A DNA stretch of 64,000 nucleotides, from IMG/VR virus record IMGVR_UViG_3300042881_004673, positions 16,392 to 80,391 of that record; one strand, given 5' to 3'. This document shows positions 27,738-45,022 of this stretch, piece by piece. Within the stretch, counting starts at the first letter, position 1, and each line of letters opens with the position of its first letter. The notes under the pieces were generated by a model that had not been told where the DNA came from, did not search any database, and worked only from the letters and a program-made list of their open reading frames with translations. Made by a program: the position numbers and the translations under genes. This DNA is from a virus.

Positions 27738-28433
27738 TGATGTGAGAACGGATCCATCCACTTAGTTTAGAGGTGGGGAAAGTTTTTAAGGACATAATAG
27801 ATAATACCATAACACATATAGTGAACAGTCCAATCATAACCCACAAGATACTAATATAGTATAGGGGATTATACATAACGATTCTTATATGTAGGTTCAA
27901 CCAATGGTTCACATGGTAATGGTCTACAGATCATAAGTGAGATCCCCACACCAAAGAGGGGAAGAGTAAGATATATTAATAGGTTTCTCATAGTAATATA
28001 AAGATAAGTATAATATATCACATAGACAAATCATTTCATCAATTAAATCATGGGGACCCTTATATATATTATAAGGCAGGTTGGAGTCTACACTCCAAGC
28101 ATCCCCAAGACTGCCAGCCCGACTCGATCTCTCATTGTCTATACAAAGATACGAAACCCTAATGACAATAACAAATAAGTTGACAACTAAATTATCAATT
28201 AAGTTATTAACAACGGGCCCCCTCCCTTACATAGTGGCATGGGGGGCTATGTCCAATATGACCCCCTCCCCCCTCCGTATCCCCCCCATATATGACATTA
28301 TGACAGGCCATAGGGGGGTTCAATCCTCTCTATGGTGTATTCGTGAAAAAAATTCTGGAAAAATTTTTGGGAAAAAATTGAAACTATTCCCCCATTACAT
28401 AGTGATGGTATATTTATTACTAAAGAAAATATT

Positions 28434-29153
28434 ATGAAAAGAATTATAAGATTAACTGAATCAGATCTAACAAGGATTGTTAAACGTATAATAATGGAGG
28501 AGCAATGTTCTGCACCACCTCAATGGTTAATGAATTATCAACTCGACGGTAAATTAGGAAAGGGTGAATGTTCTAATTGGGAATGGAGAAAAGACACATA
28601 TACTTTTTTATTTATAAATCCTAAAGTTAAGATATTAATATTGAGTATTAATCCGAATGAGATTGAAGAGGATCAATTAAACGAACTTAAACAAATATTT
28701 GGTGAACCCAAAATTACGGAAAAATATTACACATTTAAATATACTTTCTCAAACCAAGAAGATGGTGGGGATTTAAATCAAACACTTGATAAATTACAAG
28801 GAAAGGTTCCATGGATCGCATCCCTTAACGAGTCTGACATAAGACGTATATTGGAAAACGCCTTCACTAAAATGAGAAGAAGGGATGGTGAACCTATTGT
28901 AAGAAAAACGGATTTAGTAAAAGGTGTTATACATGATTTATCTATGAAAATGTCCAAAGAATATGGTTTGGATGAATATGAGGGTGATGATAACATTCCT
29001 GAGTATCTAATGCCTTATCTTGATGAAATCTCTGAAGTTGTATCTAATATTGATACAATGTTAATTTGGGATGCTGTTTATGAATCCCTCGATACCCCCG
29101 AAATAAATGATCTAATTGATAAAATTGTTGATGAATATGGCGAAGATAATTAA
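28434..29153 (+). CDS. leader-tagged two-module protein
   Basis: MKRIIRLTESDLTRIVKRIIMEE; internal second leader LNESDIRRILE. Confidence 0.8.
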   Translation: MKRIIRLTESDLTRIVKRIIMEEQCSAPPQWLMNYQLDGKLGKGECSNWEWRKDTYTFLFINPKVKILILSINPNEIEEDQLNELKQIFGEPKITEKYYTFKYTFSNQEDGGDLNQTLDKLQGKVPWIASLNESDIRRILENAFTKMRRRDGEPIVRKTDLVKGVIHDLSMKMSKEYGLDEYEGDDNIPEYLMPYLDEISEVVSNIDTMLIWDAVYESLDTPEINDLIDKIVDEYGEDN

Positions 29154-29159
29154 TATGAT

Positions 29160-29189
29160 CCCCATTCTCTAATACAGGTGGGGTTTTTT
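29160..29189 (+). terminator. CCCCA...TGGGG family terminator
   Basis: CCCCATTCTCTAATACAGGTGGGG + T-run; related to 31398 and 33552. Confidence 0.75.
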
Positions 29190-29259
29190 GTTTTATGTAA
29201 AACGACCCCCCTCTTTCTTATGTTTACATTATTAACTAATATCATTAACGTTTAACTAT

Positions 29260-29412
29260 ATGAGAAATCTTGGAATCATATTATCTGCATTGGTAACCAT
29301 TATTTTGGTTATATATTATGTGAACCCATTTATCATATATCTTATTGGATGTTATCAGGTTGGAGTATGGATTGGGGACGCCATGATTAAGTTGATTGAA
29401 AAAGATGATTGA
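29260..29412 (+). CDS. small membrane protein (50 aa); not in the ORF track
   Basis: MRNLGIILSALVTIILVIYYVNPFIIYLIGCYQVGVWIGDAMIKLIEKDD*. Confidence 0.55.
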   Translation: MRNLGIILSALVTIILVIYYVNPFIIYLIGCYQVGVWIGDAMIKLIEKDD

Positions 29413-29469
29413 TAAAAATAATATCCCTATTATGAGGTGATGGTATATTTATTAATAAAAGAAAATATT

Positions 29470-29835
29470 ATGTCAAAAATTATAAGATTAACGGAAAGAG
29501 ATTTATCTCGTATTGTTAGACAAACGATTATGGAGATGGAATCCTCTAGTGAATTTACAAACCATACTGGTTCTCCTACTAAGGTATCTATAATCAAGTT
29601 TAATAAAAAAATGGATTATGACGGGGCTTTGTCCATGTTGAAAACATATGGATCAACATATCGTTTTCCAAACAATTGGGGTAGTATAAAAGACACATTT
29701 AATAGTGGGGAGTATTGGGATAGTACTACACATGGGACATACAACATATCATATTACAATATGAAAGATAAACAATTACATCATGGGCATAGACTGCATA
29801 AAAAATATTTAATATTAGTTAAAAAAAATAAATAA
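29470..29835 (+). CDS. leader-tagged hypothetical protein
   Basis: Start re-called to MSKIIRLTERDLSRIVRQTIME. Confidence 0.8.
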   Translation: MSKIIRLTERDLSRIVRQTIMEMESSSEFTNHTGSPTKVSIIKFNKKMDYDGALSMLKTYGSTYRFPNNWGSIKDTFNSGEYWDSTTHGTYNISYYNMKDKQLHHGHRLHKKYLILVKKNK

Positions 29836-29860
29836 TTTTAATTATTAAACAAAATTAATT

Positions 29861-30208
29861 ATGAAAAGAATTATAAGATTAACGGAAAGAGATTTAACAA
29901 GAATTGTTAGAAGAGTTATAAAAGAAAATGCTGATAAAACAAACATCTATTATAGGAGATGTGAGGGTGGTTACGGTTTAATTGAACCCGAAAGTTTTGA
30001 GTTTTTACCTGGTGATGATAAATTTATAAAATTCCTTAGAAAACCTGATCCTAATTTTGATAATGGAAATAGTAAAAGTATTGGTAAGTGTCTTGCTTAT
30101 GAAGAACCAATGGAAGGGTTATGTTTTGATATAATTGTTGAAGAAGGTGAAGGTGGTAGAAAAATTGCTTATAGTGGAATTGATTGTGAGACAAGGGAAA
30201 GATGGTAG
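29861..30208 (+). CDS. leader-tagged hypothetical protein
   Basis: MKRIIRLTERDLTRIVRRVIKE. Confidence 0.8.
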   Translation: MKRIIRLTERDLTRIVRRVIKENADKTNIYYRRCEGGYGLIEPESFEFLPGDDKFIKFLRKPDPNFDNGNSKSIGKCLAYEEPMEGLCFDIIVEEGEGGRKIAYSGIDCETRERW

Positions 30209-30270
30209 TGTTTTTTAACAACTGATATATTTTAAGAGTGGGGTTTTTTATTTCCTTATATTTATCATAT

Positions 30271-30687
30271 ATGAAAGTAGTCATAACTAAATCACAATAT
30301 CAGAAAATCGTATTTAATTTATTGGATGTCTTGTATGGTCCCAATATTTCATTTAAAAAAGATGAGAATTCAGATGTATTTGAGATTTTATCAGATGATG
30401 ATGTAGAAATTTTTAGAGTTTATACAAAAGAGGGAAGATCTAAAGGATGTAAAAGAGATTTGTTAGTTCTTTCTAATACAATGGAGGACATTCAATCGTA
30501 TGTGCCACCATCGGTATTAAGAAAAAAATTATTTGCTAAAACTGTTATTTCTTATGTTAATGAAAAAACGGATCTTGATGTTGATTGTATTGATTTTGCG
30601 TATGAAATATATGATAATGATGAAACTTATTTCGAAAAAAAATATAGATTTAACGTTAAAAAAAATAAAAAAACTCACAATCGATAG
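30271..30687 (+). CDS. hypothetical protein, paralog of 37271..37711
   Basis: Start re-called to MKVVITKSQY; shared NLLD.LYGP, KGCK.DL, RKKLF.KTVISYVNEKT.LD.DCIDF. Confidence 0.8.
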   Translation: MKVVITKSQYQKIVFNLLDVLYGPNISFKKDENSDVFEILSDDDVEIFRVYTKEGRSKGCKRDLLVLSNTMEDIQSYVPPSVLRKKLFAKTVISYVNEKTDLDVDCIDFAYEIYDNDETYFEKKYRFNVKKNKKTHNR

Positions 30688-30742
30688 GTTTTTTTATTTT
30701 TTTTTTTGAACATAGAAGTATTTATAAATAAATTAAAATATT

Positions 30743-31387
30743 ATGGGAAGAATTATAAGATTAACGGAAAGAGATTTAACAAGAATTGTTAGAAGAGTTA
30801 TTAGAGAGGAACAAACAAATGTTAATGATGATTATTATTTTATTGACGAAAAAAGTATTTATGAACCACAATATGGGTATGGTGGTGGTAATGCGTTCCA
30901 AACTGTAAGAGGAACAGAAGTTTGGTTGAATAATGCCGCTCAGACATCATGGCCTGCGGGTGATGCGGTTAAAACAAAAAAGGCGGCACAAAAACTTATA
31001 AAAGCTTTATCAGGATTAGATATTAGCGGAAGTGGTGCCAAGTTGGCTCAAGAAGTTGCAACCGAATGGAAAACATACGGTTTGATTGATCAAAATGAAT
31101 TTTTAAGGCAGTGGGATGTGTTAGCAGCAAAACAAGGAGAATATTTCAACCTTAGTGGCGGGAACATGTTTAAATGGATGTCACCTTGGGAAGAATTGTT
31201 TGATGATAATGAGCATGATATTGCAAGTCAAATGATTGATCATAGTATAGCAAGAGTTAAAACTTACTGTCAACCTTATGCGGATCAAAAAACTAAAGCC
31301 GCAAGAGGTGTTGGAACATATTCTAAAAATGTAATTTGTGATTTGTTTGTAACTAATGATCTAAGAAGTCCTATGTTTAAAGACTAA
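30743..31387 (+). CDS. leader-tagged hypothetical protein
   Basis: MGRIIRLTERDLTRIVRRVIREE. Confidence 0.8.
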   Translation: MGRIIRLTERDLTRIVRRVIREEQTNVNDDYYFIDEKSIYEPQYGYGGGNAFQTVRGTEVWLNNAAQTSWPAGDAVKTKKAAQKLIKALSGLDISGSGAKLAQEVATEWKTYGLIDQNEFLRQWDVLAAKQGEYFNLSGGNMFKWMSPWEELFDDNEHDIASQMIDHSIARVKTYCQPYADQKTKAARGVGTYSKNVICDLFVTNDLRSPMFKD

Positions 31388-31397
31388 TAAAATTTAT

Positions 31398-31430
31398 AAC
31401 CCCATTTTCTAATAAGAGTGGGGTTTTTTT
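31398..31430 (+). terminator. CCCCA...TGGGG family terminator
   Basis: AACCCCATTTT...GAGTGGGGTT + T-run. Confidence 0.75.
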
Positions 31431-31572
31431 ATGATATAAAATTCTTCCTTTCTTATTGGGCGCCGGAACCCCGTCCCGACTTCGTCGGTTTTTTTTATCT
31501 TATTTATAATTTACTTAAGTGGGTATTTCAGAAAAGGTGTCGGTTTTTTTGTTTATACCATATTTATTATAT

Positions 31573-32142
31573 ATGAAAAAAATTATAAGATTAACAGAAA
31601 ATGATTTGTATAGAATTGTTCGACAAGTTATTAGTGAAGAAGAAGTTTCTTATAATGTATTAAACAAATACTTAATATCTAAACCAGAGTTAATACCGTT
31701 ATATCAAGAGATTGAAAAAGTTCTTGGTGATAAATTTACTGAAAAACATTTTACCGATGAAATCAAATATTCGGGAGGATTAAAAGAACTAAGTGGAAAA
31801 CTTTTACCAAAAACTATTAATTCTTTTAATTTGTTAAAAAGCAAATTTCCTAATATAACCTATTCAGATAAAAGTTATCGTACTTATAAACTTCAAAAAG
31901 ATATGTTTTTAGATAGCGCTAAATCACACGGAAATACTATTTCAGGTGGGCTAATTCAAGCGGCTTTACCTGGATTTAGTCAACACCACACAGGAAAATC
32001 TTTAGACCTTGCTAATTATAAAAAAAATGGAGTTTCACAATTAACACCTGAAATATTACAAAAATATAATTTTTCACTTCCATACCAATATAAAACATCA
32101 TTCAGAATGGCAGAACCTTGGCACATATATTTAAATAACTAA
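31573..32142 (+). CDS. leader + M15B (VanY-like) D-Ala-D-Ala carboxypeptidase
   Basis: MKKIIRLTENDLYRIVRQVISEE; SYRTY..Q, AALPGFSQHHTGKSLD, EPWH. Confidence 0.85.
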   Translation: MKKIIRLTENDLYRIVRQVISEEEVSYNVLNKYLISKPELIPLYQEIEKVLGDKFTEKHFTDEIKYSGGLKELSGKLLPKTINSFNLLKSKFPNITYSDKSYRTYKLQKDMFLDSAKSHGNTISGGLIQAALPGFSQHHTGKSLDLANYKKNGVSQLTPEILQKYNFSLPYQYKTSFRMAEPWHIYLNN

Positions 32143-32185
32143 TTTTTTTTGAATATATAAGTATTTATAAATAAATTAAAATATT

Positions 32186-32719
32186 ATGGGAAGAATTATA
32201 AGATTAACAGAAAGAGATTTGACTCGCATCGTTAGAAGAGTTATTAGAGAAAATGAAGAAGAGTGGATTGACCAATCACAAGATATGGATGATGAATCAG
32301 ACTTTTCAAAAATGGAACTAGAACAAAGTAGTAAAGAGGCGACAGAACAATTGAGTCCTGAAGAGCAAGATATGTTACGTGATTTTATAGAAAGTAACGG
32401 TATTGAATCTTTACAATCAATAGTTAAAGATTCTTTGGAGTCTGTATTGACGGAAGAGGATGAAAATGAAATGGGTGATAATGAATACGAAATAAGAAGT
32501 ATCATTGATAAAATTATTGGTTATAGTTCAATTGGTGCTGTATTAGCGATTGTTCCGGCAGCAATGTTTATAAGTGCGGGAATTGCTGCGGCTTTAGGTG
32601 TTTATGCTTTAGCAAGTAATACTCTTAGAGATTCCGCTTGGTTTAAAAGAAAAGGTTATGATAAATACCAAACAGGACACCATTACGGAAAATCCGATAA
32701 AAGTAGAAACAACAGATAA
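32186..32719 (+). CDS. leader-tagged protein with acidic region and TM segment(s)
   Basis: MGRIIRLTERDLTRIVRRVIRE; DDESDFSKM similar to DNESDYSEM in 44092; hydrophobic IGAVLAIVPAAMFISAGIAAALGVYAL. Confidence 0.8.
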   Translation: MGRIIRLTERDLTRIVRRVIRENEEEWIDQSQDMDDESDFSKMELEQSSKEATEQLSPEEQDMLRDFIESNGIESLQSIVKDSLESVLTEEDENEMGDNEYEIRSIIDKIIGYSSIGAVLAIVPAAMFISAGIAAALGVYALASNTLRDSAWFKRKGYDKYQTGHHYGKSDKSRNNR

Positions 32720-32721
32720 TA

Positions 32722-33216
32722 ATGAAAAGAATTATAAGATTAACCGAATCAGATTTAACAAGACTTGTTAAAAAAACTATTATGGAACTTGATAGGTCAA
32801 CTTATGATAGAGCTGCTGATGTTGCAGGTGAAAAAGGATATAATAAATTGTCTGATAGATTTCGTGAATACGGAAAAGAATTTGGTTTAAATCAAGAAAG
32901 AGATAATATCGTAATGGTTGTAGATCGTGGAGGTGAAGACCAAGTTTTAAACGTTAGAATTAATGATCTAAAAAGTGATTCTAACTATTCTATGAGTTTT
33001 ACTTTGGAAACAGAAGAACTTGATAAAGGAACTAAAAGAAAGTTTGAATTAAACAAATATTCGGATAACATAGAATTTTATCTGAATGGTCAATTTCCAT
33101 CTTTGCCACAGACAAGGAAAGATGCAAAAAAAGTTTTAAGGTTGTTTGAAAACAATGGAGTTGATGTAAGTAAAATTGACCCAAGATCAATATCATATGA
33201 TGACAGTGGATTTTAA
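32722..33216 (+). CDS. leader-tagged hypothetical protein
   Basis: MKRIIRLTESDLTRLVKKTIME. Confidence 0.8.
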   Translation: MKRIIRLTESDLTRLVKKTIMELDRSTYDRAADVAGEKGYNKLSDRFREYGKEFGLNQERDNIVMVVDRGGEDQVLNVRINDLKSDSNYSMSFTLETEELDKGTKRKFELNKYSDNIEFYLNGQFPSLPQTRKDAKKVLRLFENNGVDVSKIDPRSISYDDSGF

Positions 33217-33240
33217 ATGATAAACTAAAGAAATAAAGAT

Positions 33241-33528
33241 ATGAAAAGAATTATAAGATTAACTGAATCAGATTTAACAAGATTAGTTAAACAAGTTATT
33301 AGTGAAAACTACGAAAACTCATTATACTCAGATATTATGGAACTAATAAAAAATTCTAACTCAAGTCATGAAGAAACCATTAGTGTTTTAAATTCTATTG
33401 TTGATGAAATGTCTTCTTCAAGGAGATTAAGACGAGATGTAGAAAAAAGATTTCGTGATGATAATGAAATCACAAGTAATGATCCACGATATCTTTACGA
33501 CATGGGACGTGGAGTATCAGGTCATTAA
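33241..33528 (+). CDS. leader-tagged hypothetical protein
   Basis: MKRIIRLTESDLTRLVKQVISE. Confidence 0.8.
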   Translation: MKRIIRLTESDLTRLVKQVISENYENSLYSDIMELIKNSNSSHEETISVLNSIVDEMSSSRRLRRDVEKRFRDDNEITSNDPRYLYDMGRGVSGH

Positions 33529-33551
33529 AAATTAATAAATAAAATTTTTAT

Positions 33552-33585
33552 AAAACCCCATTCTCTAACAAGAGTGGGGTTTTTT
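33552..33585 (+). terminator. CCCCA...TGGGG family terminator
   Basis: AAAACCCCATTCT...AGAGTGGGGTTTT. Confidence 0.8.
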
Positions 33586-33634
33586 GTTTCACTTATTTAA
33601 ATGTTGGGGTATATTTAAAATTATATATTATTCT

Positions 33635-34033
33635 ATGGTTAGAAAAGACATTTATAAAATTGACATACAAGATGGTTTATATTTTTTAGTATTTCATAAA
33701 ACATTTAATGGTGGGTTTGGATCCGCAGTATCTTTATATGTGAATGAATTCGAATATTTAAAATTTGATTGTTTTGGGGAGAATGAAGGTCATTATCATA
33801 TTTATGATGAAATAACAAATGAGATCATATATTTTATTGAAAAAACATGTGAAGAACAAATAACTCGTACTTCATATGAATTAATTAATAATATTGACAC
33901 ATATTTAAATAAAAGTAAAAATGTGGATATAAAAAATTTTAAAATAAATCACAAAGATTTTATAGAAAAAATAGATGATGTAAAAAATAAAATGTTAGAA
34001 TATGAATATAATTTTTATTCTACTTTAAGATAA
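33635..34033 (+). CDS. hypothetical protein
   Basis: Start re-called to MVRKDIYK; LKFDCFG..GHYH motif. Confidence 0.65.
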   Translation: MVRKDIYKIDIQDGLYFLVFHKTFNGGFGSAVSLYVNEFEYLKFDCFGENEGHYHIYDEITNEIIYFIEKTCEEQITRTSYELINNIDTYLNKSKNVDIKNFKINHKDFIEKIDDVKNKMLEYEYNFYSTLR

Positions 34034-34044
34034 AATATAAAACA

Positions 34045-34698
34045 ATGACACCACACCATTTATCAGAAAAATTTTACACCTCGATTAATTTGGTGGTAAA
34101 TAAGACACAGCCAAAAAAAATACTATTTTTAGCAAAAGTCTTTTGTGAAGAATGGTTATTACCTAATATGTTAACGTATTCAGATGATGTTCATATTGAT
34201 TATATTCTAATACAAGAAGATGAGGTTATTGGTCTTGAGTGTGAAATTAAAGATGGAATGAAATATAATTTTCCACATAACTATGTTTCATTTGATGAGT
34301 TTAAAAACTTTTTATTTTTGGATTCTTATGATTTTATTATAATGGATACGGTTCATTATAAGGACTATATGGATTACATTTTTAAAAACATAATTCCTTT
34401 GTGTGACGGTTATGTTTTATTACATGATACATTACCACAAAGTGAGGGATCTTTGACAATACCTCGTAGATCTGATACTAGTCCTTGGGTTGGTCAAACA
34501 TATATTTCATTTCATAATTTTTATTTGGGAAATAAGAATATATCATATAATTTTGATGATGGTTATGTTGGTTATGGTTTAATTGATTGTTCTAAAAATA
34601 ATATTAATGTTGATTATGATGACACAATAATTTGGGGACTAGATCAAATTAAACTTAGTTCCATCCCTCACGAACAATTTAATAATGTTATAATGTAA
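34045..34698 (+). CDS. class I SAM-methyltransferase-like protein (Methyltransf_24-like)
   Basis: YDFIIMDTVH...GYVLLHDT.P; N-terminal glycine motif not evident. Confidence 0.5.
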   Translation: MTPHHLSEKFYTSINLVVNKTQPKKILFLAKVFCEEWLLPNMLTYSDDVHIDYILIQEDEVIGLECEIKDGMKYNFPHNYVSFDEFKNFLFLDSYDFIIMDTVHYKDYMDYIFKNIIPLCDGYVLLHDTLPQSEGSLTIPRRSDTSPWVGQTYISFHNFYLGNKNISYNFDDGYVGYGLIDCSKNNINVDYDDTIIWGLDQIKLSSIPHEQFNNVIM

Positions 34699-34773
34699 AA
34701 AAAAATAAATAATTAATAATAAAAGTGAGATTTTTTGCAACATCAACATATTTATTAATAAATTAAAACAAAT

Positions 34774-35310
34774 AAATTAAAACATTATGGGAAAAATAGT
34801 AAGATTAACTGAATCAGATTTAGTTAGAATTGTAAAAAGAGTAATTAATGAAGGTCTGAGTACAGCACTTATGGCACCATTAACTGTTGGTGGTAAAACA
34901 TATCAAGTGCAACTTTTTGGTAGAGATACGGTTGCTTTTGTTAGTAAAAATGATGTAAACACTGAGATTAAAGACAGAGATCTAATTGGAAAACTTAATA
35001 CGGCGGCCGGATTTGCTTATGAAGCAATTCCAACATCAACCGGAACAGCGTCAGTTGGGTATATTAAAAATCACTGTTCTAAATACGGTAATCTTTGTAG
35101 TAAATTACCATAATGGTAGTTGGGTTTACCAAAGATCTTTATAATTAAAATAATATTTAAAATCCCCACATTAAAATTAAGATTGTTGGGTTTTTTTAAA
35201 ACATAAACATATTTATTAAAAAATTAAAAAATTAAAACATTATGGGAAAAATAGTAAGATTAACTGAATCAGATTTAGTTAGAATTGTAAAAAGAGTAAT
35301 TAATGAAGGT
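34774..35310 (+). repeat. 82-bp perfect direct repeat (34774-34855 and 35229-35310) covering 5' UTR and leader
   Basis: AAATTAAAACATTATGGGAAAAATAG...AATTAATGAAGGT is identical; identity stops one codon after the leader Glu. Confidence 0.9.
34787..35113 (+). CDS. leader-tagged hypothetical protein
   Basis: MGKIVRLTESDLVRIVKRVINE. Confidence 0.8.
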   Translation: MGKIVRLTESDLVRIVKRVINEGLSTALMAPLTVGGKTYQVQLFGRDTVAFVSKNDVNTEIKDRDLIGKLNTAAGFAYEAIPTSTGTASVGYIKNHCSKYGNLCSKLP

Positions 35311-35538
35311 ACATCTTCTGGGCCATTCATAGTTAATGGTAAAAAGTATAATCTATTAGTTTATGGAAATGGAACAGTTGCGTACGATGATGGTATGGGT
35401 AGGGGAGTTATGGACCCCGCTATGATTAAAAAATTAAACGCTCTGTCTGGAATGGATATGCCCAGTACCGGAGTCGTAGAAGTAAAGAAACTTATGTCAT
35501 ACCCCAAACTTTATATGTGGTATAATCATCAACAATAG
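35242..35538 (+). CDS. leader-tagged hypothetical protein, diverged paralog of 34787
   Basis: Identical leader; cargo shares V.GK.Y...G..TVA...KLN..G. Confidence 0.8.
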   Translation: MGKIVRLTESDLVRIVKRVINEGTSSGPFIVNGKKYNLLVYGNGTVAYDDGMGRGVMDPAMIKKLNALSGMDMPSTGVVEVKKLMSYPKLYMWYNHQQ

Positions 35539-35577
35539 GTTCTTGGAGACACAGTATAAAGGTACATAAAAGTAACT

Positions 35578-35611
35578 AAACCCCATCTTTTAATTAAGTT
35601 TGGGGTTTTTT
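35578..35611 (+). terminator. intrinsic terminator
   Basis: AAACCCCA/TGGGGTTT + T-run. Confidence 0.7.
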
Positions 35612-35634
35612 GTTTTCCATTATATTTATCATAT

Positions 35635-36435
35635 ATGAAAATCATTCTTACAGAAGATCAGTATGAACAATTAACTGAAATGATTAAACTAGACATCAAG
35701 GTGGGTGACACCATAATGGGTGGCAAGTTTAAAAATAAGAAGGTTGTTGTAAAAACAATTGGAAAAAATGATAAGGGAGATATTACAATTAACGGTAAAC
35801 CATTATTGAGATTCAGAATTATAAAAGAATCCAATAATGCTGGTCTTAGAAGACGTGAAAGAATTGAGGAACTGTTCCACGATTATTTATTATCTAATAA
35901 TGTAACCCCTCAGGATTCGTTTGAGGGATACTTTCAATCATTGTGTTGGGACATTGCAATTAAGGTTGTAGATAGATCAAATGTTACCCTTAGAAACCAA
36001 ATCATTCGATTTATTAAAAATTATTTTTATGAAGAATTTAAAGGGTGGTGGGAAAGAAAACAAAAAAGAATGGGTATTAATGAAAATTCGTCAAGATCAG
36101 AAAAGATAAAAAAGTATTTAAAAAATAAATTGAATATTGATTTTACCGACAAGATCCAACAAATAACTTCCACATATGATGTTCCAACAAGTTTTGATGA
36201 TGGTATTGCTCCATCAACTATCAGAACATATTTGAATCATTGGGGTCCGATGTATCTTGTTAAAATTGATGGTGAAAATTATTTATATCAAGATAGAGGT
36301 GATTTTGAAATGTTTATTGATGAGGATGGATATTGGAATAAAGATGAAATCCCTGAAAAACTTGGTATCTCTGTATTGGGGTTAAGGTTCTCAGATATTC
36401 TTGACATGTATTTTTATGAGGAGGACCAAATATGA
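35635..36435 (+). CDS. leader-tagged three-module polyprotein
   Basis: MKIILTEDQYEQLTE; small basic module; IIKE-S module; INE-N module shared with 36432 and 39408. Confidence 0.8.
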   Translation: MKIILTEDQYEQLTEMIKLDIKVGDTIMGGKFKNKKVVVKTIGKNDKGDITINGKPLLRFRIIKESNNAGLRRRERIEELFHDYLLSNNVTPQDSFEGYFQSLCWDIAIKVVDRSNVTLRNQIIRFIKNYFYEEFKGWWERKQKRMGINENSSRSEKIKKYLKNKLNIDFTDKIQQITSTYDVPTSFDDGIAPSTIRTYLNHWGPMYLVKIDGENYLYQDRGDFEMFIDEDGYWNKDEIPEKLGISVLGLRFSDILDMYFYEEDQI

Positions 36436-37274
36436 AAATAATTATAACGGAAAACCAACTTAAAACGGTAGTATTTAAAAACATTAATGAATCCGCACCC
36501 AAAGATATAGAAAAAAGATATAAAACATATTCAAAACTTTTAAATGAACTAACAGAAACATTTGATTGGGTATCTAAAATTGATGTTAAATTAAGTTCTA
36601 CCGCCGAAGCAGGTGGATGGAGAAATGAAGAGAGTAAACCACTATTAAAAGTGTCAGTTTATTTTAAAAACTATCAAAAAATTCGAATGACGACACAGTT
36701 TGAGTTATTTGATGAAATAAGCTTTATTCACGATATGTTTTTTCCTCAACTAACCGGTGACCCTCTTATATATTCAGATAATGTTACAGCATATTTTTCA
36801 GTTAAATCAGTTTTTCCAAACGGTAAAACGGACTCCTTCCCAAGTCAAAACCAAATTGTTTCGGGGGATTATGACGCTGTAAGTCAAATTAGTGAATCAA
36901 ATGAAAAAAATAAAATTTTTCTTAAAGATAAGTTTGGAATTGACCTTGACGGAAAAATTAGAATGATTCAAAGTTATGAAGAACTTCCACTTGTGTTTGC
37001 CTCACATTTTTACCCAAAAGATTTTAACAGGATGTTAAATGATGGTGGTCCGTTTTATGTGATGAGCATTAATAAAGGTTATAAAATTGGTAATACATAT
37101 GTAAACAAACTTTATTTATATCGACCTCGAGTTGACGGATCTAGTTATTTAGTAGACCAAGATGGGTATAATAAAGCCGAATCCACTTTTTTGGAAAATC
37201 TTGGAGTTGATGTAATGGGTTTAACAATTAAAGATTTGGTTAACATATATTTTAATGAGGAGGATCAAATATGA
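36432..37274 (+). CDS. leader-tagged two-module protein
   Basis: MKIIITENQL...INE; ISE-SNEK.KIFLKDKFGID module; ends YFNEEDQI like 35635 (YFYEEDQI). Confidence 0.8.
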   Translation: MKIIITENQLKTVVFKNINESAPKDIEKRYKTYSKLLNELTETFDWVSKIDVKLSSTAEAGGWRNEESKPLLKVSVYFKNYQKIRMTTQFELFDEISFIHDMFFPQLTGDPLIYSDNVTAYFSVKSVFPNGKTDSFPSQNQIVSGDYDAVSQISESNEKNKIFLKDKFGIDLDGKIRMIQSYEELPLVFASHFYPKDFNRMLNDGGPFYVMSINKGYKIGNTYVNKLYLYRPRVDGSSYLVDQDGYNKAESTFLENLGVDVMGLTIKDLVNIYFNEEDQI

Positions 37275-37711
37275 AAGTAGAAATAAGTAAAAAACAATAT
37301 CAAAGGGTCATTTATAATTTATTAGATACATTGTATGGGCCAAAACTTTCATATGAAAGAAAAAAAGATATGATTTACATATATTCAAATGATAATGATC
37401 CTTTTGAAAATGAGTTGATTGGAGAAGGTGATGCGATATTTAGAGTTTATACGGGTAGTGGTAAAGGTAAAGGATGTAAAAAAGATTTGTATGTTACTTC
37501 TGAGACCGGAGAAGAAATTGAAGATTTTATACCAAAAGCCGCAACAAGAAAAAAATTATTTTCCAAAACTGTTATTTCTTATGTTAATGAAAAAACGGGA
37601 CTTGATATTGATTGTATTGATTTTTGGTATCACACAGGTTTAGAGGATTATTCGTCTAGCTACGATAAATATAATTTTAATGTGAAAAAGAATAAAAAGA
37701 TTAGAACATAA
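37271..37711 (+). CDS. hypothetical protein, paralog of 30271..30687
   Basis: Shared motifs listed under 30271. Confidence 0.8.
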   Translation: MKVEISKKQYQRVIYNLLDTLYGPKLSYERKKDMIYIYSNDNDPFENELIGEGDAIFRVYTGSGKGKGCKKDLYVTSETGEEIEDFIPKAATRKKLFSKTVISYVNEKTGLDIDCIDFWYHTGLEDYSSSYDKYNFNVKKNKKIRT

Positions 37712-37761
37712 ACAGTGCGGGTTTTTGTTTTATATACTATTTATTAACAAACGATAATATC

Positions 37762-38205
37762 ATGAATAGAAGTTATAGTAAAATTAGACACATACAAGAG
37801 GCAAACTTTCGTTTGGAAAGGAGATTGATCTCTGAACAAGCCGTTCCTCAGCAAGTTACTGACTTGTTTAATGAATTAAAAAAAGTTCCTCTTTATCAAG
37901 AATCTAATGCTTTAAGAGCGGACGGAAATAGAGTATACTATATAGGAAACATTGGTGGAACAAGCAAAACCGGAATGTTTGGTAAGGATAAATCTGAAAT
38001 TGGAACCCTTACAAACGCCACCGATCCTAACGCTAGATTTTTTGAGTGGACAGGAACAGGATGGAAACGAGGTGAACAACAAAACAAGTATTATGATGTG
38101 GCGGCCGTTGATCAGAATACGGCACTTAAAGATTATGCAAATCTATCTCTACCACAACAATCAAATCAACAAAGTCCTACCAATAATGTGGCAATCACCA
38201 ATTAA
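37762..38205 (+). CDS. leader-tagged hypothetical protein
   Basis: MNRSYSKIRHIQEANFRLERRLISE. Confidence 0.75.
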   Translation: MNRSYSKIRHIQEANFRLERRLISEQAVPQQVTDLFNELKKVPLYQESNALRADGNRVYYIGNIGGTSKTGMFGKDKSEIGTLTNATDPNARFFEWTGTGWKRGEQQNKYYDVAAVDQNTALKDYANLSLPQQSNQQSPTNNVAITN

Positions 38206-38223
38206 TTAAACTAGCCATAGAAT

Positions 38224-38703
38224 ATGGGTAATTATGTAAATTTACCGGACAAATCTCTTAGGGTTATAATAATGACTCTAAATAAAGAATTTGACGAAAA
38301 CAATATTGATATTGAGGGAAATGATATTTTCGAAGAAGATACTGTTAATCTTATTGATGCTACATTGGAATATTTTGGTATTGGAGGTCAAGATATTGAA
38401 TTATACTCATATTTCATTTCTTTATGTCTTTTAAATCCTGGTTATTTGGATAAGACTGTTCCAATACAAAGACCTAAATTAAACAAATATGAAGTTATTC
38501 ATAGTGAGTCATCTAGGGTTTATAAAACTACCACATATAGAACCGTAATACCATCATATATTGAGTTGGATGAAAATATGATTGGTGATTTAAGGTCAAT
38601 AGAGTTATATGATTATTGGGATGGTGAAGAGATTAGTGATTATGTGGACGATTCAGAAACAACTGATGACTCAGTGGAGGAAATAAATAGAATTCAAGAG
38701 TAG
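38224..38703 (+). CDS. acidic hypothetical protein, paralog of 41770..42249
   Basis: PDK..R, RP.L.KYE..H, SYI.L, Y....GEEI shared. Confidence 0.75.
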   Translation: MGNYVNLPDKSLRVIIMTLNKEFDENNIDIEGNDIFEEDTVNLIDATLEYFGIGGQDIELYSYFISLCLLNPGYLDKTVPIQRPKLNKYEVIHSESSRVYKTTTYRTVIPSYIELDENMIGDLRSIELYDYWDGEEISDYVDDSETTDDSVEEINRIQE

Positions 38704-38757
38704 AAAATTTAAATAAAAACAATTTATCAAACTAATTATAACAAAACAATTTATATT

Positions 38758-39339
38758 ATGAAAAAATTATTATTAAAAATCACATCTTTATTAGGGTTGA
38801 AAAAAAATAAAACTTCTGTAGATCGAGCAGTAAAAATATACAAAGGTAAATTTGCGTTTTGTGGAGCTTCAGGAGCAGAAGCAACTGGAAATATTGTTAC
38901 AGTCCAAGGTAGAAAATTTAAAGAGGGTCGTTCAGTATGTCCAGTAATGAATGGTCCGTCAATTGCAAACCTTAAATTGGTCCCAAACCCATCTGTTACT
39001 CCTGATGGAACTGAAGATACAGTATGGTCTTTCTTTTGGTATTATGATGAGGTTCCTCAAGCACCAACTTGGGAAACTTTACCTACAGTAAATCGTTCAT
39101 TTGTAATTGGAGATACTCCAAACACTCAAATGAGTAATATGTTCTGTATGCCATGTAAGATTTTTAAAACTATTAATGGTGTTGAATTGGCAGAATGTGT
39201 TGGGCCATTAAATGAGATGGCAGTTCCTTTAAGAAGAGCCATTAGAGTTCATTCTGGTCAAACATCGATTACACAAGCACCTGAAGGATCGTCGTATCCG
39301 GTTGGAACTGTGATTCCAACAACTACTGATTCTGAATAA
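38758..39339 (+). CDS. Cys-containing hypothetical protein
   Basis: FCGAS, VCPV, VWSFFW, FCMPC, ECVGP. Confidence 0.75.
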   Translation: MKKLLLKITSLLGLKKNKTSVDRAVKIYKGKFAFCGASGAEATGNIVTVQGRKFKEGRSVCPVMNGPSIANLKLVPNPSVTPDGTEDTVWSFFWYYDEVPQAPTWETLPTVNRSFVIGDTPNTQMSNMFCMPCKIFKTINGVELAECVGPLNEMAVPLRRAIRVHSGQTSITQAPEGSSYPVGTVIPTTTDSE

Positions 39340-39357
39340 TCTAACTAAATTTAAATC

Positions 39358-39385
39358 AAACCCCGCCTAATCAGTGGGGTTTTTT
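39358..39385 (+). terminator. intrinsic terminator
   Basis: AAACCCCGC/GTGGGGTTT + T-run. Confidence 0.75.
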
Positions 39386-39407
39386 ATTTCCTACATATTT
39401 ATCATAT

Positions 39408-39842
39408 ATGAAAATCATTATAACGGAATCTCAATCGGGCGTAATTAAAAGATACGAAAGAATGGTTAGGAATATAAAAAAAAGTATTTCTGAAAATGTG
39501 TCAAGATCGGAAAAAATAAAAAAATTTTTAAAAGATAAACTGAATATTGATTTTACAAATGGAATCAAACAAATAACATCTCAAGAGGATATCCCACGAG
39601 TTTTTATTGATGACGCTTTAAGTTGGGGGGAGTTAAAAAAGTCTTTAAATTTTTGGGGACCTATGTATCTATTTGAACTTGAAAGTCATAAAATTTTATA
39701 TCAAGATAGAGGTGATTTTGAATGGTTTATGGATGAAAATGGTCATGAATATGTTGATGATGAAATTACTGAACATCTTGGGATTGGAATTATGGGGTTA
39801 AGATTCTCAGATATTGTTGACACATATTTTGAGGAAAAATAG
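39408..39842 (+). CDS. leader-tagged protein, stand-alone version of the last module of 35635
   Basis: MKIIITESQ...ISE-NVSRSEKIKKFLKDKLNIDFT...WGPMYL...LYQDRGDFE...LRFSDI. Confidence 0.8.
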   Translation: MKIIITESQSGVIKRYERMVRNIKKSISENVSRSEKIKKFLKDKLNIDFTNGIKQITSQEDIPRVFIDDALSWGELKKSLNFWGPMYLFELESHKILYQDRGDFEWFMDENGHEYVDDEITEHLGIGIMGLRFSDIVDTYFEEK

Positions 39843-39917
39843 TTTTTATAACCCTACATTAAAAAACTAATTAAAAATTTTTGTTTTATTTAATATTTAT
39901 ATATAAAGAATAACATT

Positions 39918-40307
39918 ATGAGGAGAATTATAATTGACCAACAAGAAAAAAATAGAATTCTAAACATGTATGTTTTTAAAACAAAAAAAAATAAACTAAG
40001 AGAGGGTATTGAATCACAAGAAACATTTGATATTGAAATAACAGGCCCTGATAAAGAAACAGGAAACTTAAGTTTAAAAAATATTAAAGTTGATCCAACA
40101 GACAAGTGTAAGGTAATATTTGATTATAATATATCGGGAGAAGGTATTAAACAATATTTTGAGATGGGCCAATTAATGGGAAATGAGGGGGAATATTCGT
40201 GTTCCAAAAATCAATTTTTATTAGAATCCAAACTTGGTAAAAGAGTTTATGTAACAAACGAAACAAACGAAACAATTAAAAATCATTGTTTAAGTTGTAA
40301 AGTTTAA
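39918..40307 (+). CDS. leader-tagged hypothetical protein
   Basis: MRRIIIDQQEKNRILNMY...LRE. Confidence 0.7.
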   Translation: MRRIIIDQQEKNRILNMYVFKTKKNKLREGIESQETFDIEITGPDKETGNLSLKNIKVDPTDKCKVIFDYNISGEGIKQYFEMGQLMGNEGEYSCSKNQFLLESKLGKRVYVTNETNETIKNHCLSCKV

Positions 40308-40350
40308 TTTTTTTAAAAACTAAAGTATTTATATTATAAAAAATAATATT

Positions 40351-40677
40351 ATGAGAAGAGATATAAGACTAACAGAAAGAGATTTAACAAGACTCGTTAA
40401 AAGAATTGTTAGAGAAGAAGATGAATTTGATATAGAACAAACAGTTATGGACGCAGGAGAATTTGAAGTTGAAGATATCCCTGAAGAATGTAAAGGGAAT
40501 GACCCTGGAATGTCAAAAATTGATATGTTAACTGGATGTATTGGTAGTATAACAAAAAAATCAACGTCTTTAACGTCGGCATTAACGGCTCTAACCGCCC
40601 TATTGACTACGGCTGAGACTGAATCTGCCGCTAGCACTGTTGCAGAGTCAAGAAGAAGAAGATATAGAAATTATTAA
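40351..40677 (+). CDS. leader-tagged hypothetical protein
   Basis: MRRDIRLTERDLTRLVKRIVREE; ends VAESRRRRYRNY. Confidence 0.8.
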   Translation: MRRDIRLTERDLTRLVKRIVREEDEFDIEQTVMDAGEFEVEDIPEECKGNDPGMSKIDMLTGCIGSITKKSTSLTSALTALTALLTTAETESAASTVAESRRRRYRNY

Positions 40678-40703
40678 ATAACTAATATAATTTTTATTTA
40701 ATC

Positions 40704-40729
40704 ACCCACCCCAATAAGGTGGGTTTTTT
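40704..40729 (+). terminator. intrinsic terminator
   Basis: ACCCACC/GGTGGGT + T-run. Confidence 0.8.
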
Positions 40730-40752
40730 ATTTTACAAGGTATTTATCTCAT

Positions 40753-41337
40753 ATGAAGATTATAATTTCTGAATCCCAATATTCAAATATTTTTGAATCT
40801 AATAACGAGAAGCAATCAAACCTCATCTATAAAATGTGGAATGATGGTATGGATATTTATGAGATATCAGAATTAATAGGTCTGAAAGAATCTCAAGTTA
40901 TTTATTATCTTAAAGATAAAGAAATTAGAATTAGTTGTGATTTATCATATATAATTATCCAAATACTTTATAGAACAAGTTTAATTAATAAAAACTTTAA
41001 CTTTAATAACGGAGAAATGATTCTAAACTTAAATTGGGATAGTTTTGGTGGGTCTGTTAATTTTGAATATGAAGATAAAAAATATAAATTGTCAGGGATG
41101 GCAACACCTTATTGGGATGGAAACTGCTCAACACCGGTTGATGGTTCTTATTTTGAAGATATAGAGTCAGGAGATTACTATGATGAATATGATAATTCAG
41201 GTATTAGAACAGATTACACACCATCTAAATTTAAATCGATTCAAGAACTCATTGATTTTTTAAATAACGAATACCCTAAATTGTTAATTTCACCAATAAA
41301 GGAATTGATTCATTATTTTAAAAATAAATATATGTAA
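40753..41337 (+). CDS. leader-tagged hypothetical protein
   Basis: MKIIISESQYSNIFES; ATPYWDG. Confidence 0.75.
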   Translation: MKIIISESQYSNIFESNNEKQSNLIYKMWNDGMDIYEISELIGLKESQVIYYLKDKEIRISCDLSYIIIQILYRTSLINKNFNFNNGEMILNLNWDSFGGSVNFEYEDKKYKLSGMATPYWDGNCSTPVDGSYFEDIESGDYYDEYDNSGIRTDYTPSKFKSIQELIDFLNNEYPKLLISPIKELIHYFKNKYM

Positions 41338-41756: not shown

Positions 41757-41769
41757 CTATATATTATAT

Positions 41770-42598: not shown

Positions 42599-42643
42599 TT
42601 AAACTTTTATTTCCTTATTGTATTTATTAACTATATATGTATT

Positions 42644-42823: not shown

Positions 42824-42868
42824 AGATTTTAATTATTTTAAGTATTTATACATATAAAATAATGTATC

Positions 42869-43345
42869 ATGGGTCAATTTATAGTTTCTGAAAGTGAAAA
42901 AAAACAAATAAGACTTCTTTATGAGGTAAACAAACCATTACCACAAGCATCAAATTTTGTTAAGACTTTGGCAAGATATTTAAACATAGAACCAAGCGCT
43001 ATAATTGGTCTTGATTGGTCTTTATATAAAAATGATAATGACATAAAAACACAATTAGTTAATCTTTTTGAAACATCAAAAAAAACCGTAACTAACAAAA
43101 TTAACAATGTTAAACTTAATACTTCACTATTTAATGTCTTAAAGCAAAAATTAATTTCATATGTTCCAAATGATGCAACAAAAGAACAAAAAGATTATTT
43201 TGATGAAATAAAAAAAGGACTCACAACAGATCAAACAACCACAACAGTTAAACAAAATCAACCAACTTCAAATGTGTATAGCTTTGATAGCTTCCAACCA
43301 ACTCAAACAAAACCCACTTTATCGAGATTTCAATCACTTATTTAA
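42869..43345 (+). CDS. leader-tagged hypothetical protein
   Basis: MGQFIVSESEKKQIRLLYE. Confidence 0.75.
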   Translation: MGQFIVSESEKKQIRLLYEVNKPLPQASNFVKTLARYLNIEPSAIIGLDWSLYKNDNDIKTQLVNLFETSKKTVTNKINNVKLNTSLFNVLKQKLISYVPNDATKEQKDYFDEIKKGLTTDQTTTTVKQNQPTSNVYSFDSFQPTQTKPTLSRFQSLI

Positions 43346-43419
43346 ACATAATACATAAATTTAATTATAGTTATATTAAAATATTTAGTTTATGGTATAT
43401 TTATATATAAAAATATTAT

Positions 43420-43755
43420 ATGATAAATGAGTCAGATATAAAAAGAATAGTTAAAAAAGTAAAATCCGATAATATAAATGAAGGATTATTTGACACGTTT
43501 TTTGGTCGTGGATATTCTGGATACGCAAATGACCTATCAGAAATTATGGAAGATCTTATTTCTAACGTATATTATGATAAAAATTTAATTGCGTCAGTTA
43601 AAAACCTTTATTACGATATTAAAGATTCAAATCTTGACAGAAGACAAAAACAAGAATTAACCGATATTATAGGTGGATTATATCAAACTTTAGAAAGTTC
43701 AAAAAATAATTTAGAAAGATATCTTAAAAGAATAGAAAGATTAAATAGAATATAA
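43420..43755 (+). CDS. leader-tagged helical protein
   Basis: MINESDIKRIVKKV...INE-GLFD. Confidence 0.75.
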   Translation: MINESDIKRIVKKVKSDNINEGLFDTFFGRGYSGYANDLSEIMEDLISNVYYDKNLIASVKNLYYDIKDSNLDRRQKQELTDIIGGLYQTLESSKNNLERYLKRIERLNRI

Positions 43756-43762
43756 AAAAATT

Positions 43763-44017
43763 ATGGGATTTAAAATATATATTACGGAAAAACAATTAGA
43801 CGTGGTTCTTAAAGATTTAATGTTAGTTGAGCAATATCCTCTATTACCAAATCAAGATACCCCACAATTAACCCACATTAAAAAAAAGAAAATAATGCCA
43901 GTCCCTAATCCGAAGAAATATTCAAAATAAAGAGTCTGCGCTAGACTACTAAAAAAACATGTGTCAGAATTTAAAAAAGTAATCTACGCTTTTGGTTTAA
44001 CTAAAGGATTAAAATAA
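43763..44017 (+). pseudogene. leader-tagged small ORF (43763-43930), possibly interrupted by a premature TAA
   Basis: MGFKIYITEKQLDVVLKDLMLVE...KYSK*; the same frame stays open for 28 more codons to 44017. Confidence 0.4.
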
Positions 44018-44091
44018 ACAAAAAACGATAAAGTAATTTATTAAAATAAACTTTTAAAAATAAATAGATATTTATATAAAAAACAAAAAAA

Positions 44092-44652
44092 ATGGGAAAA
44101 AAAATTAGACTAACAGAATCTGCATTTCATTCTTTAATTAGAAGACTTGTTATTGAAACTAAAGAAAAAATGGACGACGAGGATTCGGATCATGATGATA
44201 TGGACAATGAAAGTGATTACTCAGAAATGAGTAAGGAAATGGCGGTTAAAAAAATCTCCACTTATCTAAAAAGACGACTATCAAAAAATCAAGAAGAAAA
44301 ATTAAAAGATAAAATACAAGATAAAATAGAAATAGAGGAGTCAAGAAGAAGATATGGTAGATATCTAAATGAAGAGGATGACGAAGATAAAAATTTATCA
44401 TCAAGAAAATCTGACCGTAAAGAAAAAATTGTAATTGGGGCTGGCGCTGGTATATCAGTAACAGGAGCGGTTGCAGCACTTGGATCAATTATGGGTTATT
44501 CCGAAAGTCAATTGACAAGTTTAATTCACGATATTACAGCAAATGCTGGTCTTGGTAATTTTACAGGTCCTGTAACATACGCTATGATTGCCGCTGGTAT
44601 AGCACTACTATTTAAAGGTCTTGATATGAAACATAGAAGAAAAAACTCTTAA
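44092..44652 (+). CDS. leader-tagged protein with two TM segments
   Basis: MGKKIRLTESAFHSLIRRLVIE; internal EESRRRYGRYLNEE; hydrophobic C-terminal half. Confidence 0.8.
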   Translation: MGKKIRLTESAFHSLIRRLVIETKEKMDDEDSDHDDMDNESDYSEMSKEMAVKKISTYLKRRLSKNQEEKLKDKIQDKIEIEESRRRYGRYLNEEDDEDKNLSSRKSDRKEKIVIGAGAGISVTGAVAALGSIMGYSESQLTSLIHDITANAGLGNFTGPVTYAMIAAGIALLFKGLDMKHRRKNS

Positions 44653-44666
44653 TATCATTTAAAATA

Positions 44667-44695
44667 AAAAAACCCATCTATTCGATGGGTTTTTT
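44667..44695. terminator. bidirectional terminator between convergent genes
   Basis: AAAAAACCCATC-TATTC-GATGGGTTTTTT. Confidence 0.8.
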
Positions 44696-45022
44696 GTTTT
44701 CTAAATATTTTTCCAAAATTAAAATAATTTCATCAATCTCTTCTTTATCTTCATTGCTAACCAACTTTAATTTTTTATGTTTAATTATATATTTCCACAT
44801 AAATAAATAATGAAGAATAATCACCAATAATATTGTAATAAAAGTTATATCAACAAAAATTAAATATGGGATAACCATAAAGATAAAAGTTATAATAAAA
44901 TTATATTTGTCAGAATTAGATCTAACTAAACTTTTATAACCACGAATAACCTTTTCTAATTCTTTTTGTGGTAGATCTTTATAAAGACTAGCCTCCTTTT
45001 TAATTTTTAACATATCTTTCAT
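44678..45022 (-). CDS. membrane protein (2 TM)
   Basis: Hydrophobic core; TATATTTG on the minus strand at 45041-45048. Confidence 0.7.
   Translation of the reverse strand: MKDMLKIKKEASLYKDLPQKELEKVIRGYKSLVRSNSDKYNFIITFIFMVIPYLIFVDITFITILLVIILHYLFMWKYIIKHKKLKLVSNEDKEEIDEIILILEKYLENKKPIE

Follow-up and report, generated by a model that had tools for sequence, protein, structure and literature searches.

Leader-bearing gene cassettes and their probable exchange at repeats in the hyperplastic region of an uncultured, probably T4-type phage

The 64,000-nucleotide stretch of viral DNA analyzed here (the window; bases 16392-80391 of the 80,391-bp IMG/VR virus contig IMGVR_UViG_3300042881_004673, CheckV completeness 28%) stems from an uncultured phage of lake water, probably of the T4 type and with a genome of roughly 300 kb, and an island of small genes at 28.4-44.7 kb is its hyperplastic region. 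Many of these genes start with a common leader of 22 codons, which is followed by unrelated cargos and is combined with a TATTTAT promoter motif and a terminator hairpin. The location of the breakpoints between related genomes makes it highly probable that whole cassettes are shuffled at the terminator, promoter, and leader repeats. The best joint explanation, to which we give somewhat better than even chances, is that the leader of the shuffled cassettes is also an address tag for the prohead, which would be removed by a protease of the gp21 type.

Cassette Exchange Between Related Genomes

Close relatives of the window were drawn from a metagenome scan, and the blocks shared with two of them, L137 and L138, have 85-97% nucleotide identity. 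In the comparison with these two relatives 15 island genes are syntenic (82-100% amino acid identity), about 11 are present only in the window, and about 14 only in the relatives. All internal block ends (16/16) lie in a leader, at most 20 nt from a start codon, or in the spacer between terminator and promoter, and those at 30807, 31620, 33301, and 35308 fall into leader codons 16-23. None of the 16 ends is deep within a cargo, though cargo makes up 85% of the island.

Three-way alignments located individual crossovers (the cassettes, named A1-A12 and B1-B5, are described below). L136 lacks 33589-35601, a 2-kb segment with four genes, and the crossover is within the hairpins at 33552 and 35578. 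The gene 39408-39842 is missing from L138, with a crossover within TATTTAT at 39396/39894, and in L137 a promoter of the A5 type is fused to the A7 gene and its leader, and the VanY gene and A6 are missing. An independent pair of genomes, L010 and L011, has 89-100% amino acid identity in the shared genes and differs by seven gene indels, six of which concern leader genes. One of the crossovers in this pair lies within the leader coding sequence, the others in a terminator plus promoter repeat, a promoter, a terminator, and an ATG microhomology.

A previous sequence-only reading of the window had proposed that its repeats serve as recombination joints of a hypervariable cargo island. This is borne out by the cassette indels, the ends of which are at the repeats. 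The reading had named conserved gene content, with no breakpoints at the repeats, as the result that would speak against it; the comparison with related genomes revealed the opposite on both counts. Its further claim that no integrase is needed holds for the island genes scanned, none of which has a domain resembling an integrase or a transposase, in a scan that did not include every small open reading frame (ORF). The breakpoint pattern fits homologous recombination between repeats.

Repeats, Promoter Motif, and Terminators

All repeats that had been listed from the sequence were found. The longest is a perfect 82-bp repeat (34774-34855 = 35229-35310), with no longer match on either side, and its end at 35310 is one codon past Glu22 of the gene starting at 35242. 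A 50-mer comprising promoter, untranslated region, and leader has exact copies at 30716 and 32159, an 18-mer (GTGATGGTATATTTATTA) has exact copies at 28402 and 29437, and hairpins of the type CCCCA...TGGGGTTTTTT are present at 29160, 31398, 33552, 35578, and 39358. A repeat search returned three families, namely a 74-nt repeat that spans the start codon and the leader (12 copies), a 58-nt repeat of terminator, promoter, and ATG (D6, five copies), and a 35-nt terminator (D12, four copies). Terminator-like sites are more frequent than in shuffled sequences (15 versus 6.3 +/- 2.5), and sigma-70-type sites are not enriched (106 versus 124 in shuffles).

Of the 33 genes that were tabulated between 27.4 and 44.7 kb, 20 have the motif TATTTAT in the 40 nt before the start, compared to about one expected according to our estimate from base composition. 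Its spacing is -22 to -26 for most leader genes and exactly -12 for genes of the class with the start MKIIITExQ (class 2). Both spacing peaks recur in G003, a complete relative described below, with 34 genes at -23 to -20 and 30 genes at -13 to -11. In class-2 genes TATTTAT ends just 5 nt 5' of the ATG (motifs at 35623, 39396, 40741, 30259, and 31561). If TATTTAT is a -10-like element, the mRNAs of the -12 class would be leaderless or nearly so.

The Leader Peptide and Its Classes

The class-1 leader, MxRIIRLTESDLTRIVKRVIxE, is found at the start of 12 genes between 28.4 and 44.7 kb and of one further gene at 17653 (n = 13). The ungapped DNA identity among these 13 leaders is 74% from +1 to +66, 39% from -60 to -1, and 30%, which equals background, from +67 to +240. 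Because identity drops to background past +66, the repeat stops at codon 22. Among 211 leaders, 204 have Glu at this codon and 209 have I, V, or L at position 20; a second L-T-E is found within the leader at residues 7-9. Invariant residues are encoded by several synonymous codons (four each for Thr8, Leu12, and Arg14), and therefore the leader peptide itself appears to be under selection.

The class-2 start MKIIITExQ is connected to the class-1 leader by a hybrid in L109 (MKIIITEDQYEQLTNIVKRVISE). Two more related classes are present from about 17.1 to 26.6 kb, i.e., class 3 (MNLQENIRRILREE) and class 4 (MKxLIRHILKEE), and thus the leader system is bigger than the island at 28.4-44.7 kb. Another recurrent N-terminal class, xFIITEEEKxRILxMY, is found on unrelated proteins of up to 610 amino acids, encoded by genes at 39918 and 42869 of the window and at 60720, 64992, 100822, 101642, and 107608 of G003.

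Judged from the sequences, the leader behaves as a portable peptide. It is appended to recognizable domains that normally occur without a leader, e.g., the VanY peptidase domain of the gene at 31573 and the DUF2237 domain of the gene at 17175. The product of the latter gene (17175-17651) matches DUF2237, a bacterial family, from residue 19 onward (Pfam, E 2.5e-38), directly after an 18-residue class-3 leader (MNLQESIRRILREEFNED), and it looks like a captured cellular gene that has been given a phage tag. The 198-residue product of 23574-24170 contains, by our reading, an HExxH motif (FHETAHQ) and may be a small metallopeptidase. Its cargo follows a class-3 leader in the window and a class-1 leader in the 53% identical ortholog of L104 (2903-3526). 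The gene 26274-26603 (109 amino acids) corresponds, with 98% identity, to the C-terminal module of a 404-residue protein in L137 (1541-2755). The L137 protein keeps the leader of the 26274 gene as an internal segment, i.e., a fusion or fission at the leader.

The alignment of the A7 family (52 homologs and the window protein) revealed that the leader core has been replaced in 17 of the 53 sequences, with retention of the gene. In these 17 sequences (P0047, P0049, P0051, and others) residues 6-19 read KTFYNFINESDRQS instead of RLTESDLTRLVKKT. The variants have the same length and keep I-M-E at residues 20-22. In an AlphaFold model of A7, based on 53 sequences, residues 9-20 form a separate helix, modeled with low confidence (predicted local distance difference test, pLDDT, about 55), ahead of a beta-rich domain that is modeled with confidence (pLDDT about 90).

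Distribution of the Leader

In a search of clusters formed at 50% identity, a leader profile matched 7,539 representatives at E <= 1e-3, of which 293 also passed 1e-10. The match begins at residues 1-4 in 140 of the 150 best, and some of the matched proteins have a second, internal leader copy ahead of a second module. A degenerate DNA pattern of the leader was found in more than 117 IMG/VR stretches, and about 40 of the 392 genes of G003 contain a leader of some class.

Scans of Pfam and PHROGs yielded no family that covers the leader, and most island cargos also had no family in these scans. Megablast with the island and tblastn with a leader protein or with the leader alone resulted in no match to GenBank phages, and a literature search for the motif LTESDL retrieved no paper. 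When 66 long leader proteins of the profile search were scanned with Pfam, just four single matches resulted (OmpA, GNAT, DUF760, and RhoGAP-FF1). Foldseek did not retrieve any PDB entry for the A7 structure model at E <= 0.001, and the ESM Atlas returned nothing but unnamed viral clusters with scores below 0.9.

Complete Relatives and the Link to the Phage Head

Five complete leader-bearing relatives (G001-G005) were found, with genomes of 295-322 kb and 6-16 canonical leader copies each. A Peptidase_S77 prohead protease and a capsid protein of the Gp23 family are encoded in all four that were searched (G001-G004; G005 was left out). Neither was found in the 80-kb contig itself, a 28% complete fragment that does not include the head module. 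The gene order in G003 is terminase, portal, protease, an acidic scaffold-like protein, and capsid protein, and the gene adjoining the capsid gene contains an internal class-1 leader. That a 432-residue product encoded beside the capsid gene of G003 is a capsid paralog (vertex protein) is not supported, with E 0.079 in BLASTP and no match in Pfam. In a small sample of G003 genes TATTTAT is present before the terminase, prohead protease, scaffold-like, and sheath genes and is not present before the DNA polymerase, helicase, and Clp ATPase genes. Late expression of the leader genes is therefore plausible. The T4 protease gp21 cleaves after the Glu of L/I-x-E, and the leader ends in this pattern, I-x-E, a likeness of sequence pattern only.

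The contig is connected to the complete relatives also by the 938-residue product of 12729-15545, the N-terminal half of which is 67-77% identical in four of the complete IMG/VR phages (G001, G002, G003, and G005). This half has 38-42% identity to stretches of uncultured phage genomes of 630-640 kb in GenBank. The two halves are separate genes in relatives, and the C-terminal half matches elsewhere in G002-G005. The N-terminal match is interrupted by one or two in-frame stop codons in G001, G002, and G005.

The window has a G+C content of about 28-30%, and it contains five tRNA genes and a gene for a UvrC-like nuclease. The product of 45714-48170 has an end that we take to resemble a type IX secretion C-terminal domain; therefore, a Bacteroidota host is proposed, and the host is probably a bacterium of this phylum. 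The G003 gene 140247-141392 (= L133 2365-3510) directly follows the capsid gene, and its product, like that of 45714-48170, has a signal peptide and, presumably, a type IX secretion-like C-terminal domain. TATTTAT is present upstream of both genes.

The DNA of the window was found in 20 lake-water metagenome runs, with at least 91% of the sampled words present. In these 20 runs, which were released 2020-2025, the exact arrangement of 30201-40200 is represented by 91-98% of the sampled words. The genotype of the window is stable and recurrent, though the island differs between lineages.

Organization of the Island

All cassettes and genes of the island and of its upstream extension described here are on the plus strand. 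Cassette A1 (28402-29194) comprises TATTTAT at 28411, the leader at 28434-28499 (MKRIIRLTESDLTRIVKRIIME), a cargo that extends to 29153, and the terminator at 29160. It is missing from L137, and similarity stops 10 nt 5' of the ATG. The leader genes A2 (29470-29835) and A3 (29861-30208) share a promoter at 29446 (region 29437-30250), and a hairpin remnant follows A3 near 30225-30250; the cargos of both are missing from L137 and L138. In cassette B1 (30259-30700) TATTTAT is located 12 nt before the ATG of a class-2 gene (30271-30687, MKVVITKSQYQ), which is a paralog of 37271-37711 and is kept in L137 and L138 with 88-89% amino acid identity. Cassette A4 (30716-31432) has its promoter at 30719, the leader at 30743-30808, a cargo to 31387, and the terminator at 31398. 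In L137 and L138 the similarity to A4 ends at leader codon 22 and returns at the stop codon, with a different cargo in between. Cassette A5 (31561-32142) has TATTTAT at -12, the leader at 31573-31638, and a cargo with a VanY-type peptidase domain (Pfam PF02557, E 3e-10); this cargo is missing from L137, where the A5-type promoter joins the A7 gene.

The operon A6 (32186-32719), A7 (32722-33216), and A8 (33241-33528) occupies 32159-33586, with a promoter at 32162 and a terminator at 33552. For A7 165 metagenome homologs were found at E <= 0.01, and among the 120 that were listed identity is 62-91% across the whole length or the greater part of it. Of the block ends around A8, one is at codon 21 of its leader and one precedes its ATG by 10 nt. 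The adjacent 2.0-kb segment (33589-35601) contains the genes 33635-34033, 34045-34698, A9 (34787-35113), and A10 (35242-35538), holds the perfect 82-bp repeat, and is flanked by the terminator repeats at 33552 and 35578. The similarity of A10 to L137 ends at codon 23.

The class-2 operon B2 (35635-36435), B3 (36432-37274), and B4 (37271-37711) lies in the region 35578-37735, which includes the terminator at 35578 and TATTTAT at 35623 (-12); the three genes are kept in L137 and L138 with 86-93% amino acid identity. It is followed by a three-gene unit (37738-39385; genes 37762-38205, 38224-38703, and 38758-39339) with a promoter at 37738 and a terminator at 39358. The first gene of this unit has been swapped for an unrelated gene of 190 amino acids in L137 and L138, and the breaks are 2 nt before each flanking ATG. 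Cassette B5 (39396-39893) contains TATTTAT at 39396 (-12) and the class-2 gene 39408-39842, the C-terminal part of which is a paralog of B2. The region 39894-40730 comprises the gene 39918-40307 with its promoter at 39894 and cassette A11 with a promoter at 40326, the leader at 40351-40416, a cargo to 40677, and a terminator at 40704; gene and cassette are kept in L138 (98% and 88% amino acid identity, respectively).

Further small genes between 40741 and 44000 start at 40753 (MKIIISESQ), 41343, 41770, 42281, 42644, 42869 (MGQFIVSESEKKQIRLLYE), 43420 (MINESDIKRIVKKV), and 43763, and most of them have TATTTAT or diverged leader-like starts. Cassette A12, the last of the island (44069-44700), consists of a promoter at 44069, the leader at 44092-44157, a cargo with a hydrophobic C-terminus, and a bidirectional terminator at 44667-44695. 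This right border is syntenic in the distant relatives L010 and L011, in which A12 has 32% and the next gene, on the minus strand, 42% amino acid identity. In the upstream extension (17175-26603) class-3 starts (MNLQENIRRILREE) are found at 17175, 23574, 25756, and 26274, N-terminal sequences of class 4 (MKxLIRHILKEE) at 18520, 19161, 19613, 19936, and 20354, and an ORF with a class-1 leader at 17653-17817.

Proposed Mechanism and Its Alternatives

The small genes form cassettes with a short TATTTAT promoter and hardly any 5' untranslated region. The leader of 22 codons, of class 1 or a related class, is followed by an unrelated cargo, and the CCCC...GGGGTTTTTT terminator closes the cassette. 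As the comparison of related phages shows, whole cargos are gained, lost, or replaced at three joints, the terminator, the promoter, and the coding sequence of the leader. A crossover within the leader preserves the reading frame, and a new or neighboring cargo therefore acquires promoter, start codon, and leader in one step. In the mechanism that we propose, the leader peptide would act as an address tag, comparable to the capsid targeting sequence on internal proteins of T4, and carry the cargo into the prohead, where a prohead protease of the gp21 type would remove it after [IVL]-x-Glu at residues 20-22. Cargos carried in the virion, and possibly injected, would in this way form a set with fast turnover that is made alongside the head proteins. 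That the leader is a capsid-targeting tag has, in our estimate, about an even chance. More tentatively, and with a probability somewhat below one half, the leader and its sister classes might represent a vast system of address tags, not described before, in Bacteroidota jumbo phages of the T4 type, by which dozens of unrelated proteins per phage, and thousands of families in total, would be loaded into the head and delivered to the host. The tag coding sequence would in this case double as an in-frame joint, and a captured gene could be turned into a packaged late protein by a single crossover.

Several points weigh against this proposal. Since selection eliminates disrupted genes, any model predicts some of the breakpoints at gene borders; leader-internal, in-frame crossovers are more specific evidence for shuffling. 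The turnover is not fast across the 20 metagenome runs in which the window genotype was present at 91% of the words or more. The canonical leader is not indispensable, since its core has been replaced in 17 of the 53 A7-family sequences. The pattern [ILV]-x-E is short and frequent by chance, and a crude ratio of nonsynonymous to synonymous polymorphism (pN/pS) of about 0.5-0.6 for the leader is not a strong test either way. Tblastn with the leader against 50,697 GenBank phage records, including T4, gave no match at E <= 1. The contig is a fragment without head genes, and its link to protease and capsid runs via relatives, with which it has the leader and one highly conserved protein in common. 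The case for packaging, cleavage, and expression timing is circumstantial.

Among the alternatives, the one that survives best, with a small probability, is that the leader helix addresses or docks its cargo to another destination (tail, baseplate, fiber hub, chaperone, or export) and is not cut by the prohead protease. A short amphipathic helix that is apart from the cargo fold in the AlphaFold model would suit such a role, as would the leader genes of L067, which have a large gene for a protein with a sheath-type N-terminus at a distance of no more than about 3 kb, and the hydrophobic C-terminal segment of the A12 cargo. However, small and very diverse cargos, including VanY, the HExxH protein, and DUF2237, suit internal or injected proteins better than fiber modules, and the near-invariant Glu22, I/V/L at position 20, and the T4-type protease of the relatives fit processing.

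Somewhat less probable still is that the leader contributes to the function of cytoplasmic proteins, e.g., as an oligomerization, nucleic-acid-binding, or membrane-surface helix or as a regulatory degron, and that the genes form an ordinary multigene family. RIVKRVIKE is a basic amphipathic helix, internal leader copies are kept in two-module proteins, and packaging is only inferred. One biochemical role is, however, unlikely for more than 7,000 unrelated cargos, which include enzymes with an appended helix; moreover, leader classes interchange on one cargo, and the A7 family tolerates the replacement of the leader core.

We regard it as improbable that conservation concerns mainly the nucleic acid, i.e., that a translation-start or leaderless-mRNA element, which is also a recombination substrate, has been spread by gene conversion and encodes a functionless peptide. 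The up to four synonymous codons at invariant residues contradict this explanation, as does the conservation of the peptide in thousands of clusters and at internal positions, where a role at the start site cannot apply, and the conserved block ends exactly at the codon of the invariant Glu. The explanation is favored by the copies that are identical at silent sites (82-bp repeat) or, for other leader pairs, 89-92% identical, by the near-leaderless mRNAs implied by promoters 12 nt before the ATG, and by the crossovers within the 5' block and a pN/pS just moderately below 1. Very improbable is that the cassette indels are assembly artefacts, in which strains were joined at leader or terminator repeats: the repeats, of up to 82 bp without a mismatch and of about 110 nt with 93% identity, have a length that misleads short-read assemblers, and many homolog contigs are just 0.6-3 kb, but L137 and L138, which are from different samples, agree across an overlap of about 9 kb, the copies in L009, L010, and L145 agree, the window arrangement is present at 91-98% of sampled words in 20 runs, and the unshared genes are unique sequences rather than rearranged shared ones.

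If a tag that loads the phage head is indeed present, it would mark thousands of candidate injected phage proteins, which could be found from sequence alone, and anti-defense and host-takeover factors would likely be among them, in a clade without a cultured member. One repeat unit that comprises promoter, start codon, tag, and crossover site would be a simple route to new expressed genes. For practical purposes, the leader profile can be used for searches as it stands, and foreign proteins might be brought into phage heads by means of such a tag.

Comparison With Known Systems

The internal proteins (Ip) of T4 share only the capsid targeting sequence, by which they are routed into the scaffolding core (PMC3012670). 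One account mentions that more than 10 Ip types are recognized by the capsid targeting signal and that Ip1-3 block restriction enzymes (PMC12373910, citing Repoila et al., 1994). This published view of a diverse anti-defense set that shares only a tag matches the architecture described here. As in Ip1, Ip2, Ip3, and the variable Ip genes of T-even phages, a short conserved N-terminal peptide is present on unrelated small proteins, the gene set varies among close relatives, and the tag end has the L/I-x-E pattern that is cut by the protease family. The T4-type capsid protein and the protease of the gp21 family that belong to the T4 system are found, in the clade analyzed here, in the complete relatives. 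However, the T4 tag comprises about 10 residues compared to the 22 residues of the leader, and there is no detectable sequence similarity. In contrast to the T4 tag, the leader has several interchangeable classes and internal copies in multi-module proteins. The leader marks dozens of genes in one genome, e.g., about 40 of the 392 of G003, and over 7,000 clusters in total, compared to about 10 reported Ip types. For the products of the leader genes, packaging, cleavage, and injection are predictions.

The second related system is formed by the promoter-early stem-loop (PeSL) cassettes of T4-type phages (Arbiol et al., 2010, PMC2839356; Comeau et al., 2014, PMC4122927). In both cases a composite of terminator hairpin and promoter is repeated in hyperplastic regions of small ORFs, the ends of indels and replacements between close relatives lie in the motifs, and no integrase or transposase is involved, in the island as far as its genes were scanned. 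The PeSL promoter is sigma-70-like and early, whereas the TATTTAT element of the island is also present before head and tail genes. In addition, the repeat described here runs 66 nt into the coding sequence, so that some crossovers result in in-frame protein fusions, which is not the case for PeSL. The proposal that PeSL-like shuffling operates in the island is thus supported for the terminator-plus-promoter composite and its role, but not for the promoter type, which is not sigma-70-like and apparently not early, or for the non-coding nature of the repeat. The cassettes would widen the PeSL concept, which concerns regulatory DNA, to include coding sequence.

A general analogy exists to the N-terminal trafficking domains of polymorphic toxins and effectors, in which a conserved N-terminal module is also combined with a hypervariable C-terminal cargo and the cargo is exchanged by recombination where it meets the module. 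In contrast to these, the tag described here has just 22 residues and is phage-encoded, and the cargos have no recognizable toxin domains. Taken together, the region resembles the internal-protein locus of T-even phages combined with PeSL cassettes and is, as judged by sequence, a member of neither.

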